This document shows, piece after piece, positions 771 through 14,443 of a stretch of 14,443 nt of DNA. The notes under the pieces are model-generated. The model ran no database searches, was not told the origin of the DNA, and saw nothing but the letters and a program-made list of their open reading frames with translations. The position numbers and the translations under genes are program-made. Origin of the DNA: Dendronephthya gigantea (lineage: Eukaryota); the NCBI RefSeq assembly GCF_004324835.1, contig NW_021163311.1:138208-152650 (forward strand), in the 5' to 3' direction. Within the stretch, counting starts at the first letter, position 1. Each line of letters opens with the position of its first letter.

Positions 771-1080
771 CTGGTTTATAATGAAGATAAATGATTATGA
801 AATGCTGCTTTTTACATGTTTTAAATGCAATGGAAATTTGATCAGATATCCCCCAATGCTCGAGTTGTCTGACACAAAAGGTCTACATGTGTCTTGGGTA
901 AAGTTTGACAGATCTTTCTGCAAAGAGTTGGGTCAATTTTCGTTCCAACAACTAGCTTAAAATGAAGATAAATGGAATATGAAATGCAGTTTTTCACATG
1001 GTTTAAATGGAATGAAAAGTTTGATGAAATATCCCTGATACAAAAGACATGTTTCTTGGGTAAAGTTTGATGGATATTCT
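738..1080. repeat. Tandem duplication (about 180-bp segment, 1.9 copies) spanning start of exon 11 and most of the upstream intron
   Basis: Segment 738-918 realigns with 919-1080 (shared strings agagttgggtcaattttcgttccaaca, aatgaagataaatg, cttgggtaaagtttga). Confidence 0.75.
921..953 (-). pseudogene. Degenerate duplicated copy of the 5' part of eIF2gamma exon 11 ([12 protein letters not shown]) inside the exon10-exon11 intron
   Basis: gcaaagagttgggtcaattttcgttccaaca is repeated from 738-768; the acceptor is changed from ccag|GT to ctag|TT and there is no downstream donor or matching continuation. Confidence 0.6.
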
Positions 1081-1083
1081 TAC

Positions 1084-1228
1084 CAATTAGTCCACCAGGT
1101 ACGGCGTACTGAAGATCATTTTGTTCGGCGAACAACGAAACAATCACAGAACAGATTGGTTCCCAACGCAGTTTTCCTTTCTCATCTTTGGAAACAATGC
1201 CTGGACGTACTTCAATCTCTTGACCAAC
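1084..1228 (-). CDS. EIF2S3: eIF2 gamma exon 10: [48 protein letters not shown](G)
   Basis: Acceptor catttttag, donor GTAAGA; matches human [49 protein letters not shown]. Confidence 0.9.
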
Positions 1229-1463
1229 CTAAAATGTTGAATTAGAAATGAATGAAAAGTATAGACCTGCTTCAAATCAGACCTATTGCATCCTTTAAAG
1301 TTCTGGTAAGAGTAATATTTAGTAGAGCTTTGTAGGTGGAGCTATCAATTGTACGCATTTCCACAACAATGTAAACTTGGAGTAGCTGGGAAGATCTCAA
1401 AGAAGCTGGTTAATTCGACTTGTTTGTTATGGAATGGGGACAGCAAAAAGTGATCAACCATAC

Positions 1464-1558
1464 CTTTAAGACACCTTGGAGAATGCTTCCTCCAGCAACA
1501 CCTCCTTTAAGGTCTTGTACTTCGCATCCAGGCTTATTCACGTCAAAAGAACGGATCA
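1464..1558 (-). CDS. EIF2S3: eIF2 gamma exon 9: (V)[31 protein letters not shown]
   Basis: Acceptor tgatttcag, donor GTATGG; matches human [31 protein letters not shown]. Confidence 0.9.
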
Positions 1559-1698
1559 CTGAAATCAAGCAAGTATTTCAAGGTTTAAATTGTGAATAAT
1601 TCTTCAACCAAAGCAAGATACAGTTTCATTACACCATTCATTCAACTGCAAATGATTCTACAGTATTTGGTTATAGTCATGTTGGTCAGTCATCTCAC

Positions 1699-1833
1699 CA
1701 ATGAGCCTTGGTTGTGATGTGAAGTCTCGTCTTGGGATGGGTATTTTCTTGCAAATATATTCACAGATGACTTCAATGTTGTATTTCAACTGCGCCGAGA
1801 TTGGAACAACTGGAGCTCCTTCAGCAACTGTAC
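1699..1833 (-). CDS. EIF2S3: eIF2 gamma exon 8: (G)[44 protein letters not shown](V)
   Basis: Acceptor ccaaag, donor GTGAGA; matches human [45 protein letters not shown]. Confidence 0.9.
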
Positions 1834-1865
1834 CTTTGGTAAGGATAACACACAAAATTATATTT

Positions 1866-2078
1866 TGTTTCAAACTGTTCTTCTAGAGGTTTAGTGAGGA
1901 TAATCTCTTATTGATCCAGTGTTACTACAGGAGAAAACCTAAACTAAACTAACTTTATTTATACTGGATAACTCTATCAGTTCTAAACTGTTCTTCCTAG
2001 AGGTCCAGTAAGGATCATCTCTTATTGATCCAGTGTTACTGCAGGAGGAAACCTAAACAAACTAACTTTATTTATAAA
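1866..2078 (+). repeat. 114-bp satellite family, cluster 2 (about 1.9 units) filling eIF2gamma intron 7
   Basis: Same unit; intron is 1834-2098, so only 32 bp and 20 bp of unique sequence remain at acceptor and donor sides. Confidence 0.9.
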
Positions 2079-2098
2079 TGTAGGACAAAAGCAAATAC

Positions 2099-2257
2099 CT
2101 TCAACAAATTTCAGAATTTCTTTATACTGGTCCTTTGCTTGACTTTCTCGTACAAGATCAATTTTGTTTTGCAAGATGATAATATGTTCAAGTTTCATGA
2201 TCTCGATTGCTGCCAAATGTTCTGATGTCTGAGGTTGGGGGCACGATTCATTGCCAG
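2099..2257 (-). CDS. EIF2S3: eIF2 gamma exon 7: (A)[52 protein letters not shown](G); G4 NKID
   Basis: Acceptor ttattccag, donor GTATTT; 159 nt; matches human [53 protein letters not shown]. Confidence 0.9.
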
Positions 2258-2302
2258 CTGGAATAAAGATTGAAGAATACAGTTATGTACATGCCATAAA
2301 AC

Positions 2303-3597
2303 TGTCACTTGTCAACTCTCATGCAACTCTTGTTCTGGTTTGATCAAGCAATGATAGTTGATGAAACTCTCATGTAAACTCTCACTTGTCAACTCTCATG
2401 CAACTCTTGTTCTCGTTTGATCAAGCAATGATAGTTGATGAAACTCTCATGTAAACTCTCGCTTGTCAACTCTCATGCAACTCTTTTCTCGTTTGATCAA
2501 GCAATGATAGTTGATGAAACTCCCATGTAAACTCTCGCTTGTCAACTCTCATGCAAGTCTTGTTCTTATTTGATCAAGCAATGATAGTTGATGAAACTCT
2601 CATATAAACTCTCGCTTGTCAACTCTCATGCAACTCTTGTTCTCGTTTGATCAAGCAATGATACTTGATGAAACTCTCATGTAAACTCTCGCTTGTCAAC
2701 TCTCATGCAACTCTTGTTCTCGTTTGATCAAGCAATGATAGTTGATGAAACTCCATGTAAACTCTCGCTTGTCAACTCTCATGCAACTCTTGTTCTCGTT
2801 TGATCAAGCAATGATAGTTGATGAAACTCTCATGTAAACTCTCGCTTGTCAACTCTCATACAACTCTTGTTCTCGTTTGATCAAGCAATGATAGTTGATG
2901 AAACTCCCATGTAAACTCTCGCTTGTCAACTCTCATGCAACTCTTGTTCTCGTTTGATCAAGCAATGATAGTTGATGAAACTCCCATGTAAACTCTCGCT
3001 TGTCAACTCTCATGCAACTCTTGTTCTCGTTTGATCAAGCAATGATAGTTGATGAAACTCCCATGTAAACTCTCGCTTGTCAACTCTCATGCAACTCTTG
3101 TTCTCGTTTGATCAAGCAATGATAGTTGATGAAACTCTCATGTAAACTCTCACTTGTCAACTCTCATGCAACTCTTGTTCTCGTTTGATCAAGCAATGAT
3201 AGTTGATGAAACTCCCATGTAAACTCTCGCTTGTCAACTCTCATGCAACTCTTGTTCTCGTTTGATCAAGCAATGATAGTTGATGAAACTCTCATGTAAA
3301 CTCTCACTTGTCAACTCTCATGCAACTCTTGTTCTCGTTTGATCAAGCAATGATAGTTGATGAAACTCCCATGTAAACTCTCGCTTGTCAACTCTCATGC
3401 AACTCTTGTTCTCGTTTGATCAAGCAATGATAGTTGATGAAACTCTCATGTAAACTCTCGCTTGTCAACTCTCATGCAACTCTTGTTCTCGTTTGATCAA
3501 GCAATAATAGTTGATGAAACTCTCATGTAAACTCTCACTTATCAACTCTCATGCAACTCTTGTTCTCGTTTGATCAAGCAATGATAGTTGATGAAAC
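2303..3597. repeat. 77-bp satellite array, about 17 units, occupying nearly all of eIF2gamma intron 6 (2258-3639)
   Basis: Unit tgatcaagcaatgatagttgatgaaactctcatgtaaactctcgcttgtcaactctcatgcaactcttgttctcgtt; period 76-77 measured at 2341, 2418, 2494, 2571. Confidence 0.95.
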
Positions 3598-3639
3598 ATT
3601 TAACCCTCCCATTTTAACACATTGGAATGGAAATCTCAC

Positions 3640-3734
3640 CAATTAGCAACATTGCGGCGTCCATAACGGCTGCTCCGTTCAACATGGTTGCCATAAGAAT
3701 GTCGTGACCTGGGCAATCCACGAAAGAAACATGT
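3640..3734 (-). CDS. EIF2S3: eIF2 gamma exon 6: (R)[31 protein letters not shown](A); switch II DCPGH
   Basis: Acceptor tttattttgtag, donor GTGAGA; matches human [33 protein letters not shown]. Confidence 0.9.
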
Positions 3735-3840
3735 CTACAAAATAAACAATCATTTCTCTATGAATAGATTTTAGAAAGTGTTCTATCAAGATTTACAACG
3801 CACAAAAATTCATGGTTTGTAAGAGTTTATGTACACAAAC

Positions 3841-3962
3841 CTCACTAACTGCGATTTACCCTGGCAACCTGGTCTTTCACATGGTATGATGTCTTCGCGA
3901 GCGCTTCCTGCTGATCGATAACAGCTGGGCCTCTGACAACTGGGGTTGCTGCATTTGTAGAT
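3841..3962 (-). CDS. EIF2S3: eIF2 gamma exon 5: [40 protein letters not shown](R), Cys-rich zinc-ribbon segment
   Basis: Acceptor tttcttag; only donor giving phase compatibility with next exon is GTTTGT after ...GTGAG (122 nt, phase 2); aligns to human IYKLDDPSCPRPECYRS...GNFKLVR and Drosophila-type CxxxxC...CxxxxC. Confidence 0.7.
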
Positions 3963-4652
3963 CTAAGAAATATTTTTCTTGAAATATGGGGTAGATACTG
4001 TAGGCATTCTATTTTCTGCAATGAACTACATATATTCTTTGAAATATGCTACAGCAATGGGTAGGTAAGGAAAATTATCCAGAGTTTCTGATTTCTTTTG
4101 TCTGTCAGTGAAGAAATATTAAAATTGTATGGCTAATTCCAAGGCTAATTGTCGGTGGAGTAAATAAACTTTTGGGTAAAAATAAATAAGAAATGTTCGG
4201 AATAGAATTATCTTGTGTTAATCAAGGGCAAATCTAAACAAAAATCAGTCTAGTTGAGAGGCCTTGGGTTTGTTGCAAATGCACTAGACTTAAATATTAA
4301 GCTTAGTGGCTCTTGTTTTAGTTGATAGGTTCTTCTAATATTTTAGATCCATACATTCAAGACGAAATGTCAAGTCTATAACTATCAATATATGTAGTGA
4401 TCATTGTACAGTACGTGATTAATTAAAGGTCTGTTCACACAATACAAATTTATCAGATCCAATTCACTTCTGATGGATTTTTTATAATCTGTTGACTTGC
4501 AAAGTATACGGGCAGCAAATCAACTGAAGCCAATGCAGACTGTTTTATCAATAACAAACTATATTCCATACATCAGAAGTGAGTTGGACCCGACAAAGTT
4601 GTACAGTCTGAACAGGCCTTAATTTGTTTAAGTATTTATATAACCATAGTAC

Positions 4653-4718
4653 CTTTGCATTAGCATAGCCAAGCTTGATTGTGATATTTCGTTCAAGTTC
4701 GTTTTTAAATCGGACAGT
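4653..4718 (-). CDS. EIF2S3: eIF2 gamma exon 4: [22 protein letters not shown]
   Basis: Acceptor ttttccag, donor GTACTA; 22/22 identical to human eIF2gamma; phase 0/0. Confidence 0.9.
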
Positions 4719-5107
4719 CTGGAAAATAAACAAGCATATAGCAGGTTGTCGCAAAATTTGATGACAACATAAAATGCTGTTTATAATGTCTGAGATTTAT
4801 ATCTTTCAGAAGTCGCAGTTTTGACGGAAGATGAACTTTGCTACCAAGTTATTATGATAGCTCTCTATTCTAACTCAGGCAAAATGCCATGATAAAACTT
4901 GCTATCAAAGCTGTTTTCTACTTCAACCATATTGTAGCATAACGTAGCGTATTTCTTTGTTTCCGAAGTATTCGACCAGAACTAATGACTTTAAAACAAT
5001 GAGATATCCGAGGTTTTGCTACAATACAGTTGAAGTGGAAGACAATGTAAAACAACGCAAGCTTTGCAATGTCTGAGATTTCTTTCGAACAATCTTATAC
5101 ACAATAC

Positions 5108-5132
5108 CTGAACACCAGATAAAGCTTTTACA

Positions 5133-5169
<37 letters not shown>
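5108..5169 (-). CDS. EIF2S3: eIF2 gamma exon 3: (G)[20 protein letters not shown], G1/P-loop GHVAHGKST
   Basis: Acceptor ctag, donor GTATTG; near-identical to human [20 protein letters not shown]. Confidence 0.9.
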
Positions 5170-5172
<3 letters not shown>

Positions 5173-5349
5173 GAAATTAATGAAATTTACATTATTGAAA
5201 TATATTATTTCCTGCAATTGCATAAGCCTTCAGAGGCAAGATTACATCTTAAACCTGTTCATTGCAAATCCATGAAGACGTACATGGTGTAGAGAGTTGA
5301 AACTAAGTAATCATTTTAACTTTGTCATCATTGGTAGAGCAATACTAAC

Positions 5350-5413
5350 CAATATTTATAGTTGCTTGACGGCTGATTACTTCTGGTGTTAGAGGATTTA
5401 GTTCCTCGATTTT
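5350..5413 (-). CDS. EIF2S3: eIF2 gamma exon 2: KIEELNPLTPEVISRQATINI(G)
   Basis: Acceptor tttatag, donor GTTAGT; peptide matches human KLTPLSHEVISRQATINIG; ends phase 1. Confidence 0.85.
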
Positions 5414-5450
5414 CTATAAAATTTAAAAGACATAACCTTTTCAGCTCAGG

Positions 5451-5610
5451 CATTAGCTTGCAATGCACCCAGATGTGGCCTACTTTAGTATTTTACTCTG
5501 TCTAATGTCAGATGATTTTACTCATCAGTGGAAGAGTACTGTCAGTTAATAAGTTAACAAAACTATCTGTCAGTGTCTCTTGTTAACCCATTAGCTTGCA
5601 ATGCACCCAG
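5451..5610 (+). repeat. 138-bp repeat family, copy A (about 1.15 units) in eIF2gamma intron 1
   Basis: Unit gttaacccattagcttgcaatgcacccagatgtg...actcatcagtggaagagtactgtcagttaataagttaacaaaactatctgtcagtgtctctt. Confidence 0.85.
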
Positions 5611-5926
5611 CAACTGATCTGGTTAACTTGCACACGAATCTTTGCACAAATATTTTACCAAAAACAGCCTGAGATTGCCTTAACTTCTATTTAAATATCT
5701 TACAAATAGTTTAGTTTACAAAGAAGAATCAACCATTCCACAATAATAAGAATTCAAAGCATTATTAGATCTCGAAATAAGACTCATTCCTGAGTCAGAT
5801 CATGCCGTAGAAACCACATAAAAAGCGATAATTTTTGCAGTATAAACTCACTTCATATCTACAAAGGTAAAACTATACATAGGGACCAAGATCTTTGTAG
5901 GACGGGGAAAGGATTGGAATAAAATG

Positions 5927-5980
5927 AATATGCTTACCAATTTTGATAAATCCTGCTTTGATAAGCGAGGCTGGCCTACC
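5927..5980 (-). CDS. EIF2S3: eIF2 gamma exon 1 (start codon at 5978-5980, minus strand): MSTEVGQPRLSKQDLSKL
   Basis: Reverse complement reads ATGAGCACCGAG...AAATTG followed by donor GTAAGC; matches N-terminus of eIF2gamma (human ...GQPHLSRQDLTTL); phase 0. Confidence 0.8.
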
Positions 5981-6119
5981 TCGGTGCTCATGATTGCATC
6001 AACAAGGTTTTGTTGATGAAATAAAAATGAAAATTTTTCTTGCGTAAAAAAGCAAAAAATGAGCGAAATTCTGCTTCGAGCTGATGCAATACACGAGTGA
6101 CGGTCAGTGACCATTGATC

Positions 6120-6478
6120 TCTGTAACTGGAGTGATCACGAGAGATGCACTGAGGGATAAACAACACTGGAGTGATAAAAGAGCACCCACTGAGAGACAA
6201 GTGTAACTGGAGTGATCACAGAAGATACACTGAGAGATAAGTATAACTGGAGTGATCACAGAAGACGCACTGAGAGATAAACATACTGGAGTGATAACAA
6301 AAGACGCCCTGAGAGATAAGCACAACTGGAGTGACTACAGAAGACGCACTGAGAGATAAGTATAACTGGAGTGACTACAGCCAGACGCACTGAGAGATAA
6401 TTATAACTGGAGTGATAAAGAAGACACACTGAGAGATAAAGCATTACTGGAGTGATCAAGTGTAAGCATTACTGAAAA
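6120..6478. repeat. 40-bp minisatellite (about 9 units), 140 bp upstream of the eIF2gamma start codon
   Basis: Unit actggagtgatcacagaagacgcactgagagataagtata; actgg recurs at 6126, 6166, 6206, 6246. Confidence 0.9.
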
Positions 6479-8650: not shown

Positions 8651-8690
8651 CTAGAAGTTTCAAATAGTTCGGATATTGTTACCAAATTTA

Positions 8691-9250
8691 GCTCCATCAG
8701 TTCTAAACTGTTCTTCCTAGAGGTCCAGTAAGGATCATCTCTTATTGATCCAGTGTTACTACAGGAGGAAACCTAAACTAAACTAACTTTATTTATACTG
8801 GATAGCTCTATAGTTCTAAACTGTTCTTTCTAGAGATCCAGTAAGGATCATCTCTTATTGACCCAGTGTTGCTACAGGAGGAAACCTAAACTAAACTAAC
8901 TTTATTTATACTGGATAGCTCTATCAGTTCTAAACTGTTCTTCCTAGAGGTCCAGGAGGGATCATCTCTTATTGATCCAGTGTTACTACAGGAGGAAACC
9001 TAAACTAAACTAACTTTATTTATACTGGATAGCTCTATCAGTTCTAAACTGTTCTTCCTAGAGGTCCAGTAAGGATCATCTCTTATTGATCCAGTGTTAC
9101 TACAGGAGGAAACCTAAACTAAACTAACTTTATTTATACTGGATAACTCTATCAGTTCTGAACTGTTCCTCCTAGAGGTCCAGTAAGGATCATCTCTTAT
9201 TGATCCAGTGTTACTACAGGAGGAAACCTAAACTATATTTATATTGGATG
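8691..9250 (+). repeat. 114-bp satellite family, cluster 3 (about 4.9 units) in last intron of the signal-peptide gene
   Basis: Five tandem units with minor variants (113-114 bp). Confidence 0.9.
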
Positions 9251-9385: not shown

Positions 9386-9464
9386 CTGAGTAGATTAGAT
9401 TGATTTTTAAAGCTATTAAAGTGTTTAATATCCTTATGCATTCAACAGGACTCTTGATTCTTAA

Positions 9465-9885
9465 GCCCTGGTCAAACGAGAATGATAGTTGATGAGAGTT
9501 GAGAAGCGAGAGTTTGCACGAGAGTTTTCCAAACTCTCGATGCGCCGGTCAAACGAGAATGAGAGTTGAGAACGAGAGTTGATTACGGCGCGCATTAATT
9601 TCGTCCTTACTCCACTTCGTTTTGCTTTTTTTGTTTCTGCCCGTTGTTTTCAGAAGATTTCTTTTTTTTTTCAAAAAAATTGCAAACCGCTAGCTGTTTT
9701 GCAACTCTCATCAACTCTCATGACCGATCAAACGCGCCCAAACTCTCATCAACTCTCATCAAAATTTGAACCAGTTCAAAGTCAATGAGAGTTGATGAGA
9801 GTGCACGAGAGTGTATGAGAGTTCGCGGTCAAACGCAAGCGAGAGTTGCAACTCTCATCAACTCTCATTCTCGTTTGACCAGGGC
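9465..9885. mobile_element. MITE (421 bp) with about 40-bp TIR GCCCTGGTCAAACGAGAATGA.AGTTGATGAGAGTTG, flanked by TTAA on both sides (9461-9464 and 9886-9889); lies in intron 3 of signal-peptide gene
   Basis: Left cTTAAgccctggtcaaacgagaatgatagttgatgagagttg; right caactctcatcaactctcattctcgtttgaccagggcTTAAa; internal ctctcatcaactctcat subrepeats; TTAA duplication is piggyBac-like. Confidence 0.8.
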
Positions 9886-9911
9886 TTAAAGGTTTCATCC
9901 ATAAAAATTAC

Positions 9912-10057
9912 CTGAACATCGACTTGTTCAACTCGCTTTTCATTAATGAATTGCACTTGTTCTTCGATCAAATATTGATGTCCCGATTCCAGCTCCTTTC
10001 TCATCACCATTACGTGAATTATGACAGGAAGAATGCGAACATCTTTGGCAGAGTAAA
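9912..10057 (-). CDS. Signal-peptide gene exon 3: (V)YSAKDVRILPVIIHVMVMRKELESGHQYLIEEQVQFINEKRVEQVDVQ
   Basis: Acceptor tttcacag, donor GTAATT; phase 1 in / 0 out. Confidence 0.6.
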
Positions 10058-10276
10058 CTGTGAAATGAATACACAACAATTAGCCCAGAACTTATCCAAA
10101 TCTTCTCTGTCAAAAGAATTTAGGCTGTATGCACATGAAGGTAAATCAGTTATGATTTTTGGCACTTCACTCGAGGTAGGTAAATTCTAATGGTTCTTAG
10201 GGTGTTAATTTCGAGTGGAATTATACACACTTCAAATTCAAGCCAGGAACAGTTGATGGAAAATGAGTCAACTATC

Positions 10277-10352
10277 GGTCCTCCGGCAGAAATCGAACCT
10301 ATGCTTTTGCGATGCCGGTGCAATGCTCTTGCCACTGAGCTACAGAGGTAGC
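10277..10352 (-). ncRNA. tRNA-like Pol III element (degenerate tRNA or SINE head) with A box TAGCTCAGTGG and B box GGTTCGATT
   Basis: Minus strand acctctgtaGCTCagtggcaaGAGCattgcaccggcatcgcaaaagcataGGTTCGATTtctgccggaggacc; resembles tRNA-Ala but acceptor and T stems do not pair. Confidence 0.45.
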
Positions 10353-10741
10353 TGACAAGAGCAAGCGTGGTTAGTGTGCATATGATGGTAATCATCTGTG
10401 TGCACATGAGCGTCGTTTTCGAACATTCTCAAAATCGTTTTCATCCAGATTATTGCTTTGACACTTTGTCAACATGATCCAAGGGAAAATATGCTGAATA
10501 TGTTAAATTAGCTTCAAATTGACTGTGTTTGAAACAGTTTGAAATGAAAACGAAAATGTAAATGCGTGCACATGCATAGCCTTAGAATGAAAAAGCTGAA
10601 CCTGACTGCACCATTAGTGGAAGGTGTAAAGTCTGATTCAAAAGCTATGCTGGAAACTTAGTTTCAAAATATCACTGCTGTAGAAAACATTCAAAGTGAA
10701 GAATATATTTATAATAGCAAATAAATTTAGGTTGTTCGTAC

Positions 10742-10841
10742 CAATCTCAGCAGTGAGGTCGTACTTCGTAAGAACATCTAGTTCTGTGAGTTTCCCATTA
10801 ATTCTGACACTGTCTTCCTGGATTGTAATGTTCAATTTCAC
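10742..10841 (-). CDS. Signal-peptide gene exon 2: VKLNITIQEDSVRINGKLTELDVLTKYDLTAEI(V)
   Basis: Acceptor aattctcag, donor GTACGA; phase 0 in / 1 out. Confidence 0.6.
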
Positions 10842-10896
10842 CTGAGAATTAATACAACAGCATTGTGAGCAATAAATTATTTATTAAATGTTAAAG

Positions 10897-11140
10897 TAGG
10901 TCACATCTGGGTGCATTGCAAGCTAATGGGTTAACAAGAGACACTGACAGATAGTTTTGTTAACTTATTAACTGACAGTACTCTTCCACTGATGAGTAAA
11001 ATCATCTGGCATTAGACAGAGTAAAATACTAAAGTAGATCACATCTGGGTGCATTGCAAGCTAATGGTTATCACAGATAGTTTTGTTTACTTGGTAATGA
11101 CAATGATCAAGTGGTGAGTAAAATCATCTGGCTGATGGAA
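10897..11140 (-). repeat. 138-bp repeat family, copy B (reverse orientation, about 1.7 units) in intron 1 of the signal-peptide gene
   Basis: Reverse complement of the unit: aggtcacatctgggtgcattgcaagctaatgggttaacaagagacactgacag... Confidence 0.85.
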
Positions 11141-12035
11141 CTTATAAAATAAATAAACGTTTATAAAAGTACATTTAGAGACGCCTACTATTGCAAAGTC
11201 ATTGCTAAATTCAGCTGAGGCAATCTTAAAGACACAGCTAGCAACTTTGAGGAATTTTTCCCGTTAACAAGAGGCAAAATTGTGCTTTGTCATGTTTTTG
11301 TGGGGAGGAATTTCATCAACAACACGCAATAATAGTTATGTAATAACTTGCTTTCTATAACGTTATATAAAAATATAGATTAAGAAAACTTCCGACCGCA
11401 AATTTCCCACTTAAAACGACTATCTGAAGACGTGCAGGTGTTTTCAAAAAGGGTATTAAAACAAGACTTGTACAATATGAATAATGTTCAGATATTGACA
11501 CATGCTGGGAATATTTCGTCGCTTTTATTTTGCGATTTTATGAACAACGATCTTAGTTGATAAAACCAAGTTTCGTTTCGATTAAAAGCAGGAAGATTTT
11601 GAAGCGATGTTTTGAAGCTTCGATCGCAGTTTTGTTCAGATCAATCGAAGCAATTTTTGCGTTTTAAAAGGAAAAAGATTAGAGAAAGTTTTGGCAGCTA
11701 AAGGCGCCATAGACAAGGACATGTCACAACTTATTTCCTTCTTTCCCAAATTGGATTCCCGGTTACAAAAGAAAACAAAACAAAGTACCAACGTTTCCTC
11801 GAAGAAAATACACTGCAATTCAACTGCCTTGGCTGCAGATTTTCGTTTTGATTCAAAACGAAACAATCTGAACTTTGTGTGAAAGCCGTGTCGCAGTTAA
11901 ATTCAAAGTATTTTAAGCTCTTTCTATGCCGAATATAAACGCCGCATTTCTATGTTTACAAATACAAGACTCTATCATCCATTACTGGGCTACTTTTAAC
12001 TAGTTTTCTCTTCGAATTCATGCACAAATACTTAC

Positions 12036-12209
12036 AATAACTTCGGTTTCTCGTCTGCCGTTTGCGGAGTCTTCCTCCTCGATGATTTTCACAGAGATAG
12101 AGAGCTTCTCTTTTGAATGTTTTGTGCCAGATTTGAGGTCGTTTTCGCCGGCAAAAACTGCCTGGAATATCGCCAAAAACAAGACGAAATGGCCAAGCAC
12201 TTCAAACAT
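12036..12209 (-). CDS. Signal-peptide gene exon 1: MFEVLGHFVLFLAIFQAVFA|GENDLKSGTKHSKEKLSISVKIIEEEDSANGRRETEVI (predicted cleavable signal peptide)
   Basis: ATG at 12207-12209 (minus), hydrophobic h-region then VFA-G, consensus donor GTAAGT at 12030-12035; faces GC-box promoter. Confidence 0.55.
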
Positions 12210-12417
12210 GGTTTATTTGCTCAAAAAACAGATATAAAAGCGATAATATTGAACAGGAGAAGCACAGCGCGAATGCGGATTGCAATATGTAAACAGCTTG
12301 GAAAAGCTGTATAATATTTACATATTAACTCGTTGCAAGGGTGATAACTATTGTTATTAATACTATCGGTTAATAATTAATGACCATATATAGAGCCAAG
12401 ATTCAACGTATTATACA

Positions 12418-12660
12418 TATGCGGATAATCCCTTAGATAATCCGGTAAAGTTAATCCGGTAGAATTAATCAGTAGCAGTAATCAGTGAGCTCACTGGCAG
12501 TAATATCCAGATTCAACGAATGTGATCCTAAACCCTAGAGAATTAGGTTTAAAATAGATTAAGGATTAGACTAACTCGATTAAAGATTAGATTAGATTCG
12601 GTCAATGGTTAGAACTTAGAATGAAAGCTTGCATTGTAGAATATGGATATAGGATTATCT
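12418..12660. promoter_or_regulatory. Cluster of TAATCC / GGATTA (K50 homeodomain-type) motifs upstream of signal-peptide gene
   Basis: gataatccc, gataatccgg, gttaatccgg, ggattagac, aggattatc plus several TAATCA / GATTAG. Confidence 0.25.
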
Positions 12661-12739
12661 GATTTAATTTCGTTGAGATCCAGATATCCTATGTCTATGT
12701 TAATAATATATACAATGCAAGCCTTATCTAGATATGGTA

Positions 12740-13056
12740 GCCCACCCCATAGGGAACACCAGCTACATGATCAGTGATGGTACCACTACACGTTAACGAT
12801 ACCCCCCGCCCTCCTCATAGCCCACAGACGTCACTCGAGTTTTTTAAATTTCAATGAAGTAATATTACCCTCCTATATTGACCGCCAACCCACGCCACAA
12901 GGCCAGAGGGCCCCGCCCCTCCCCCTATCGCGTGCGACCCCCTCTGGCAAGCAGTTCAAGTATGCCTAAAGTACTTGACCTTTGTACGTTGGAGCTCTCT
13001 TTATATCTCATTTCCATATTTCATTGAAATTTGAATAAATATTCAATACAAATAAA
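12740..13056. promoter_or_regulatory. Bidirectional GC-rich promoter between divergent signal-peptide gene and ferredoxin gene (GC boxes ccccgcccc at 12911-12919 and ccccccgccctcc at 12803-12815, CACCC box at 12743-12749, TATA-like ctttatatct at 12999-13008)
   Basis: Only GC-rich island in window; lies between two divergent ATGs 847 bp apart. Confidence 0.55.
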
Positions 13057-13223
13057 ATGGCTCATCTTCGAAGACTCGCATCGCTTTCCACGAGAAGATC
13101 TTTGAGGAAATCCTTGTCAAGTTACTTGTATTCGTCTTCGACAAAACTTCAAAACAACGTCGCTTTATGTGGTACCACTTATCGTCATGTTAGTTCGAGT
13201 GGAGCAAAATTACAGCCGGACAC
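13057..13223 (+). CDS. FDX1: Ferredoxin exon 1: MAHLRRLASLSTRRSLRKSLSSYLYSSSTKLQNNVALCGTTYRHVSSSGAKLQPD(T), Arg/Ser-rich mitochondrial presequence
   Basis: ATG 13057; donor AC|GTAAGT (phase 2); presequence-like composition. Confidence 0.65.
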
Positions 13224-13410
13224 GTAAGTCGATGAAAATGTATATTTAATTATGTATATATTTCACGTTTTAGTGTTTACTCGAAGTCATATGGCGATTG
13301 AGTGATTAATTAAAACGAATTCCCGTTTTTATGTAATTCTTCAATGTTCACTTGGCTATATTTTGCTAAAAAAAACGACACCAACAATAATTTTACTCAT
13401 GGGAAGAGTT

Positions 13411-13720
13411 GTTAACCCATTAGCTTGCAATGCACCCAGATGTGACCTATTTAAGTATTTTACTCTGTCTAATGTCAGATGATTTTACTCATCAGTGGAA
13501 GAATACTGTCAGTTAATAAGTTAACAAAACTATCTGTCAGTGTCTCTTGTTAACCCATTAGCTTGCAATGCACCCAGATGTGACCTATTTAAGTATTTTA
13601 CTCTGTCTAATGTCAGATGATTTTACTCATCAGTGGAAGAGTACTGTCAGTTAATAAGTTAACAAAACTATCTGTCAGTGTCTCTTGTTAACCCATTAGC
13701 TTGCAATGCACCCAGATGTG
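13411..13720 (+). repeat. 138-bp repeat family, copy C (2.25 tandem units) in ferredoxin intron 1
   Basis: gttaaccc recurs at 13411, 13549, 13687 (period 138). Confidence 0.9.
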
Positions 13721-14157: not shown

Positions 14158-14159
14158 GT

Positions 14160-14443
14160 AAGAGATGATCCTTACTGGACCTCTAGGAAGAACAGTTTAG
14201 AACTGATAGAACTATCCAGTATAAATAAAGTTAGTTTAGTTTAGGTTTCCTCCTGTAGTAACATTGGATCAATAAGAGATGATCCTTACTGGAACTCTAG
14301 GAAGAACAGTTAAGAACTGATAGAGTTATCCAGTATAAATAAAGTTAGTTTAGTTTAGTTTCCTCCTGTAGTAACACTGGATCAATAAGAGAAGATCCTT
14401 ACTGGACCTCTAGGAAGAACAGTTTAGAATGATAAGAGCTATC
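14160..14443 (-). repeat. 114-bp satellite family, cluster 4 (reverse-complement orientation, 2.5 units or more, truncated by window end) starting 2 bp after ferredoxin exon 3 donor
   Basis: Plus strand reads agagatgatccttactggacctctaggaagaacagtttagaactgatag..., the reverse complement of the unit. Confidence 0.9.

Follow-up and report, generated by a model that had tools for sequence, protein, structure and literature searches.

How does a satellite come to occupy nearly all of an intron in a housekeeping gene, and what is its relationship to a short transposon that lies 6 kb away? This question is raised by a 14,443-nucleotide stretch of DNA (hereafter the window), in which an intron of the eIF2-gamma gene holds a tandem array of 77-bp units, and an intron of a membrane-protein gene hosts a miniature inverted-repeat transposable element (MITE) with terminal inverted repeats (TIRs). 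The original prediction for this DNA was that the satellite had been built by tandem amplification of the MITE terminus, and this idea is upheld by homology over the full 77 bp and by the predicted intermediates, which were found in other assemblies. The satellite consists of the terminal unit of a TTAA-inserting non-autonomous DNA transposon in tandemly multiplied form, and we put at roughly 0.8 the probability that it arose by tandem amplification of one MITE end, with units multiplying and the ends of the element then being lost.

The kinship of the two sequences is readily demonstrated. Satellite and MITE give a local alignment score of 102. When the monomer was shuffled 1000 times with its dinucleotides preserved, the mean score was 20.4 (standard deviation 3.4) and the maximum 38; shuffling the MITE in this way gave a mean of 19.6 and a maximum of 30. 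Every other 421-bp stretch of the window scores 23 or less against the satellite. The pairwise check suggested with the original prediction thus speaks for it. The match is not a low-complexity effect limited to a CTCTCAT motif, because the example alignment given at that time, which is 84% identical (53/63), still shows 81% identity (30/37) after removal of the ACTCTC-type motif columns. Over the full 77-bp unit, identity between the satellite and the MITE terminal unit is 84% in pairwise alignment (62/74) and 79% in a multiple alignment, and the homology extends beyond it into a second unit, so that 115 bp of the MITE are covered. The match of about 85% first reported over the terminal ~60 bp was therefore accurate as to identity but too short. 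A further segment that had been described as shared, aatgatagttgatga, is really the second arm of a palindrome within each monomer and no separate block of homology. In the consensus monomer of related arrays on other contigs (see below), the palindrome has a 14-bp stem, ATGAGAGTTGAGAA...TTCTCAACTCTCAT, which is weakened to a lesser hairpin in the monomer of the window subfamily.

The element itself is intact and TTAA-flanked, as had been claimed. Its two arms (9461-9501 and 9849-9889), which are 98% complementary over 41 nt, each consist of a 37-bp TIR plus TTAA, and the consensus of the TIR is GCCCTGGTCAAACGAGAATGA[T/G]AGTTGATGAGAGTTG, with the terminus reading GCCCTGGTCAAACG... The longest open reading frame (ORF) lying entirely inside it encodes 69 residues and is repeat-derived, GAGAGTT / AACTCTC motifs are numerous in both orientations, and there is an internal hairpin. 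With its TIRs, its small non-coding size and several related copies among the loci examined, the element has the attributes of a MITE. Crucial to the argument is a direct repeat at one end, where positions 9465-9492 recur at 9542-9569 with a spacing of exactly 77 bp and 89% identity. The MITE hence holds ~1.5 units of the 77-bp repeat, which is a ready substrate for expansion. The intron that hosts it, in a gene whose structure at this point is deduced from ORFs and reading frames and for which Pfam returned no family, would be ~101 bp long if the MITE and one TTAA were removed, the MITE making up ~81% of it.

What such an expansion might look like is revealed by related loci, which were found with a chimeric protein query joining every stop-to-stop peptide encoded by the MITE or the satellite. 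This query retrieved seven long spurious ORFs with a 77-residue period (equivalent to three 77-bp units), located on seven contigs (L006-L012), four of which come from ENA assembly ERZ25073802, one from ERZ25073769 and two from Joint Genome Institute (JGI) metagenomes (3300042715 and 3300042726). Several of these contigs also carry a 114-bp repeat that is present in the window, and they probably originate from the same or closely related hosts. Arrays belonging to this family are present on all seven, their period being 77, 87/88, 164/174 or 241 bp. In six of them (L006, L008, L009, L010, L011 and L012), nearly every monomer starts with G[C/T]CC[C/T]GGTCAAACG, and in most related arrays the start of the monomer is the complete MITE terminus, G[C/T]CC[C/T]GGTCAAACGAGAAC, from which it follows that the repeated unit is the terminal 77 bp of a transposon. 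A search with a satellite pattern, which matches the window and these loci, found nothing in a metagenome contig collection that evidently lacks the JGI samples of L010 and L012.

These loci can be arranged in a graded series of forms (Table 1). The original prediction had proposed looking for MITE ends around other copies of the satellite, and elements flanked by TIRs and TTAA with ~10 to 37 units were indeed found. The number of units inside elements, including the window MITE, is ~1.5, 10, 12, 36, 37 and 72, and it is ~8, 17 and 26 in the arrays that have no ends. Such variation in unit number and the existence of end-less arrays, together with a monomer homologous to part of a transposable element, are what characterises a transposon-derived satellite. 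TTAA exactly abuts five of the six well-preserved termini (both in the window and three of four in L006, L010 and L012). Homologous ends or right arms are present in L006, L008, L009, L010 and L012, with a fragment in L007, and the right arm of L012 is 85% identical to that of the window MITE over 125 bp. Expansion is confined to one arm in L006, L009, L010 and L012, the other arm being unique sequence, and higher-order periods are seen in the window (154 bp), L006 (174 bp) and L009 (241 bp). L007 also contains, at 15462-15489, 28 bp identical to the internal hairpin region of the MITE (window 9745-9772), which directly follows a 114-bp array just upstream of an NF-YC exon and is probably a remnant of another MITE copy.

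How the arrays and the TIRs relate to one another becomes apparent when consensus monomers are aligned. Identity to the window array is 96% for the L007 array, 82-87% for the other arrays and 79% for the MITE unit. All arrays carry GAGAACAAGAGTTGCATGAG, whereas the genuine outer TIRs have GAGAATGAGAGTTGATGAG, in some cases decayed, the array state differing from the TIR state by a 1-bp insertion. The GAGAATGAGAGTTGATGAG state is found at both ends of the window MITE and in its internal copy. The outermost unit of L009 has it too, that of L010 has it truncated, and both ends of L012 have it decayed; the array-side terminus of L006 is an exception, since it is array-like rather than TIR-like. 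Because the arrays share a derived state that is absent from TIRs, they would descend from a common array-bearing ancestor rather than from an independent expansion at each site. This changes one aspect of the original prediction, which saw the MITE-to-satellite transition captured within one 14-kb window. The homology stands, but with 96% identity between the satellite and L007 and only 79-84% between the satellite and the neighbouring MITE, the MITE 6 kb away is, judged by these identities and by the state common to all arrays, a cousin of the satellite and not its parent. In the subfamily formed by the window and L007 arrays, the terminus GCCCTGGTC has decayed to GCTTGATC, a form that is probably no longer recognised by the transposase.

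The array in the eIF2-gamma intron is a derived and highly regular member of this family. Tandem Repeats Finder gives a period of 77 bp with 97% matches and zero indels, which agrees with the period and the end point originally proposed (3597) but places the start at 2299, 4 bp earlier than the 2303 first given. A pattern search for the satellite in the window produced 14 exact matches against 0 expected. Its minus strand has the orientation of the MITE plus strand and of the eIF2-gamma sense strand. According to the monomer table, the array is very homogeneous, divergence being highest in the edge monomers, and two variant monomers that alternate at 3067-3451 produce a partial 154-bp higher-order repeat. 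The satellite was thought to fill the whole intron, and it does account for 1299 of the 1382 bp (94%), yet non-repeat flanks of 41 and 42 bp hold the acceptor and the donor. On the minus strand, the upstream exon (...VMDAAMLLI) has its last base at 3640, next to a gtgag donor, and the downstream exon begins at 2257 after a ...ttattccag acceptor. In Nematostella, eIF2-gamma has an intron of ~480 bp at the identical LLI/AGNES position, which makes this an old intron that does not owe its existence to the repeat. It was originally ~83 bp long and its splice sites are untouched by the array, which is most likely neutral, selfish DNA with no cellular function implied. A structured RNA gene, considered as a possible identity for the array or the MITE, was rejected after an Rfam scan of both gave no match. 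The best named matches of the eIF2-gamma protein are in anthozoans (88%), with several deuterostomes reaching up to 87%, and it is 95% identical to the protein in two transcript assemblies.

Two further tandem repeats were observed in or next to the same gene. At 736-1021, a ~181-bp tandem duplication (83-91% identity) has copied an intron end and the first 11 codons of an eIF2-gamma exon, generating a second acceptor site and a pseudo-exon that are probably unused. At 6124-6458, a 40/80/159-bp tandem repeat (~80% identity) is found ~130 bp upstream of the first coding exon (MSTEVGQPRLSKQDLSKL, ~5945-5998), in the likely promoter region.

Table 1. Features of the window and of the related loci (a slash marks the boundary of an element)
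Feature	Position	Strand	Description	Basis
Satellite array, eIF2-gamma intron	2299-3597	-	16.9 x 77 bp, 'GATCAA' subfamily	Tandem Repeats Finder and monomer table
eIF2-gamma host intron	2258-3639	-	1382 bp, between ...AAMLLI and AGNESCPQ...	Sequence, translations, protein matches
MITE	9465-9885	+	421 bp, no long ORF	Sequence and repeat analysis
TTAA, left flank	9461-9464		Putative target-site duplication	Sequence
TTAA, right flank	9886-9889		Putative target-site duplication	Sequence
Left TIR	9465-9501	+	GCCCTGGTCAAACGAGAATGATAGTTGATGAGAGTTG	Inverted repeat I1, 98% complementary
Right TIR	9849-9885	-	36/37 identical to left TIR	
Terminal 77-bp unit of the MITE	9465-9541	+	Homologous to the satellite monomer over its full length	
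Partial second unit of the MITE	9542-9583	+	Terminus copy GCGCCGGTCAAACGAGAATGAGAGTTGA	Direct repeat D1, spacing 77, 89% identity
Membrane-protein gene intron hosting the MITE	9386-9911	-	526 bp, GT..AG boundaries	Reading frames
L006 composite	10018-13323		TAAA/GCCCCGG..., 37 units of 88 bp, ...GTTTGACCAGGGC/TTAA	
L010 composite			TTAA/GCCCCTTGTCAAACG..., 11.6 units, unique right arm with decayed TIR at end	
L012 composite			TTAA/GCCTTTG..., ~10 units, then right arm	
L009			Decayed-end composite, 36 units	
L008			Decayed-end composite, 72 units, 5.5 kb (longest array seen), MITE internal hairpin retained	
L007			End-less array, 26 units, 97% of a 2080-bp NF-YC intron	
L011			End-less array, ~8 units	

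Putting these forms together, we propose that (i) the first 77 bp of such an element, in which the terminus GCCCTGGTCAAACG... is combined with a short palindrome and several GAGAGTT motifs, became directly repeated at one end, a condition that the window MITE displays, (ii) adjacent copies would then have permitted unequal exchange or replication slippage, to which the higher-order repeats point, so that the number of units could drift up from ~1.5 in the window MITE to ~10 to 72 in related elements, (iii) composites with intact TIRs would have transposed and seeded arrays at new TTAA sites, as suggested by the TIR and TTAA flanks of array-bearing copies, (iv) decay or loss of the ends would have left immobile satellite arrays, a transition that the loci display as a graded series and not as a time course, (v) the eIF2-gamma array would represent an end-less, derived subfamily homogenised in place, which its 97% identity and its 154-bp higher-order repeat support, and (vi) this array would have come to sit in an old short intron with its splice sites intact. 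That the MITE came first and the satellite second is strongly indicated, and a published scheme for the passage from MITE to satellite DNA agrees with this model (PMC12628747, section 4, Fig. 2d).

Several points weigh against this scenario. The direction of evolution is not rootable without an outgroup, and the array occupies one arm only. Neither edge of the window array has a TIR that can be recognised, its arrival as part of a MITE thus being presumed, and a single TTAA is found near it (3600-3603, 2 bp from the upstream edge). No empty site or presence/absence allele was recovered, mobility and a true target-site duplication therefore being putative, and neither a transposase-like ORF nor an autonomous partner was found in the window or in the ~104 kb of related loci. 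Finally, closeness of the related contigs to the window is suggested by the shared 114-bp repeat only.

The bare edges of the array are at the heart of a possible, if rather doubtful, alternative, which accepts that the array belongs to this family but has it enter the eIF2-gamma intron without transposase, through re-integration of extrachromosomal circular satellite DNA or through templated break repair. TIRs are missing at the edges of the L007 and L011 arrays as well, and the flanks of 41 and 42 bp in the host intron are too short to accommodate a right arm of 150-300 bp. Moreover, the end-less arrays of the two introns, which are 96% identical, are members of a single subfamily with a decayed terminus, and a transposase should be unable to mobilise such a terminus. 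However, TTAA lies not only next to the upstream edge of the window array but also at the edge of the L011 array and overlapping the downstream edge of the L007 array, which is a weak hint of transposase target sites as TTAA is common in AT-rich DNA, and the decayed-end composites L008 and L009 demonstrate that loss of ends does happen.

It is unlikely that events ran in the opposite order, with a pre-existing 77-bp satellite giving rise to the MITE when two inverted monomers were recognised by a transposase as ends. Every monomer does contain a complete terminus-like sequence, the data provide no root for the direction, and MITE capture of pre-existing repeats has been proposed for miDNA4 (PMC12628747, section 4). 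Against such a course, the right arm is not built of monomers and nevertheless ends in the same 37-bp TIR, and the best-preserved terminus sequence is found in arrays inside TIR-flanked elements. In addition, TIRs across loci share GAGAATGAGAGTTGATGAG while the arrays have another state with a 1-bp insertion, which argues that the arrays come from one array-bearing element rather than that TIRs were drawn from arrays.

More improbable still is the idea that the 'GATCAA' subfamily is a self-spreading satellite without TIRs, which favours short introns of highly expressed housekeeping genes in sense orientation. The arrays in eIF2-gamma and NF-YC both lie in sense orientation and nearly fill introns of housekeeping genes, but two cases carry no statistical weight; a public ORF (P0131) similarly has an exon-like N-terminal stretch followed by the same repeat. 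Transcription-associated breaks or circular DNA intermediates are possible routes for such spreading, and arrays with ~70 or more putative transposase-binding motifs per intron might titrate transposase.

Hardly any weight attaches to introners, i.e. elements that created the introns they occupy. The repeat does make up 94-97% of two introns and the MITE ~81% of a third, but the splice sites are located in non-repeat flanks and the position of the eIF2-gamma intron shared with Nematostella rejects such an origin there. A chance or low-complexity likeness between two CTCTCAT-rich sequences, both of which abound in the GAGAGTT / AACTCTC motif, is equally negligible and is rejected by the shuffle scores and the motif-free identity, as well as by the common 77-bp period and the family of intermediates.

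Tandem amplification of a transposon end being the preferred explanation, to which superfamily does the transposon belong? MITEs of the piggyBac type target TTAA and have TIRs starting with CC[C/T]T directly after it (PMC2872659), whereas the element in the window starts with GCCCTGG, in which CCCT is offset by one base, and L006, L010 and L012 also start with GCC. Kolobok elements and T2-MITEs combine a TTAA target with a terminal RR (AGGRR) motif (PMC6004289), of which the TTAA is present here and the terminal RR is not, the end being GC... The TTAA thus fits both superfamilies and the terminus GCCCTGG neither exactly, and the element could be assigned to piggyBac or to Kolobok.

Comparable systems have been described in other animals. 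Xmix and Xstir in Xenopus, which were reportedly described by Hikosaka and Kawahara in 2004, are one of them. According to two papers (PMC6004289, PMC12628747), Xmix (a T2-MITE of the Kolobok superfamily) is a TTAA MITE that occurs as such, as a composite of MITE and array, and as pure arrays. The differences are that the Xstir repeat is described as internal MITE sequence whereas here it is the terminal 77 bp including the terminus, and that T2/Kolobok elements have terminal AGGRR and live in a frog, whereas GCCCTGG is found here in what is apparently a cnidarian-like invertebrate. The Xenopus miDNA4 MITE likewise contains one to many monomers, its long arrays turning into classical satellites after mutation of the ends in the model of Scalvenzi and Pollet (PMC12628747, Fig. 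2d), and this scheme corresponds to the series outlined here, i.e. the window MITE, L010/L012, L006, L009/L008, and then the window array and L007. It differs in that miDNA4 belongs to Tc1/mariner with a TA target and a repeat thought to have been captured, whereas our element targets TTAA and has its own terminus within the repeat. In Drosophila virilis, tandem repeats in the terminal region of the Tetris foldback element have given kb-size arrays of the TIR-220 satellite (PMC4079207), but they are present in both long TIRs and the arrays lie in beta-heterochromatin, whereas here one arm is concerned and the arrays examined lie in gene introns. A foldback element was rejected for our family, because the tandem subrepeats are restricted to one arm, opposite an arm of unique sequence. 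The piggyBac-related CMITEs of Acropora corals also target TTAA, form tandem arrays and are intronic (PMC2872659), although, comparing by description, these are whole ~100-bp elements in tandem with CCCT termini, whereas here a single end of a 421-bp element is multiplied. A literature search with k-mers of the TIR and the monomer found no paper.

Other repeats accompany this family. The 114-bp tandem repeat, which is unrelated to it, is found at 8689-9235 (plus strand) and 14159-14443 (inverted), with partial copies at 213-465 and 1867-2050. These make at least four occurrences within the window, which are spread over introns of each of the three genes and include both orientations. Further occurrences are at 3784-4498 in L006, at 14281-15446 in L007 and in the flank of L010 (~2600-2725), where a composite MITE has inserted within the repeat. 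In an intron of the ferredoxin gene (13409-13720, plus strand), there are 2.3 tandem copies, with 99% identity, of a 138-bp unit that includes GTTAACCCATTAGC..., and the membrane-protein gene has a second tandem pair (10886-11067, minus strand); with its initial TTAACCC, the unit resembles array-forming MITEs of the piggyBac type, such as the coral CMITEs. L008 contains a 37-bp unit in 131 tandem copies (824-5679), and L007 a 105-bp unit in 14 copies (16732-18202) that was called as a 473-residue ORF. The host genome therefore appears to be rich in short-unit satellites in gene-bearing regions. In an intron of the membrane-protein gene, the segment 10277-10349 (minus strand) matches the Rfam tRNA family with 36 bits and is called by ARAGORN as tRNA-Ala with anticodon GGC; it could be either a tRNA gene or a tRNA-derived short interspersed nuclear element, and similar stretches are found in L008 (~12860-12930) and in ORFs of L011.

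The 77-bp repeat family is clearly abundant in public assemblies. An HMMER search with one spurious ORF against 1.84 billion representative proteins yielded 475 clusters at E <= 1e-3, 293 at E <= 1e-10 and 94 at E <= 1e-30, and among 156 repeat-derived ORFs (P0121-P0276), the GGTCAA type accounts for 101 and the GATCAA type for 27. One practical consequence is that hundreds of entries in public protein databases are spurious 'proteins' obtained by translating this repeat, and that gene models may run from an exon into an array. A gene call in L007 (10001-12247, P0122) passes from a real NF-YC exon into the intronic array.

The origin of satellites from transposons has been documented in frogs, flies, bivalves and plants, usually with just some of the stages being seen. 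Here, the whole series, from a short MITE with 1.5 units through composites with TIRs and TTAA and composites with decayed ends to arrays without ends, is recoverable from a few contigs. What is distinctive is that the unit contains the transposon terminus itself, that one arm expands, and that two end-less arrays nearly fill short introns. Although this is a clean example of a known process, which opens no new question, it would add an early-branching animal lineage to the known cases if the host is a cnidarian, as the similarity of its eIF2-gamma suggests.

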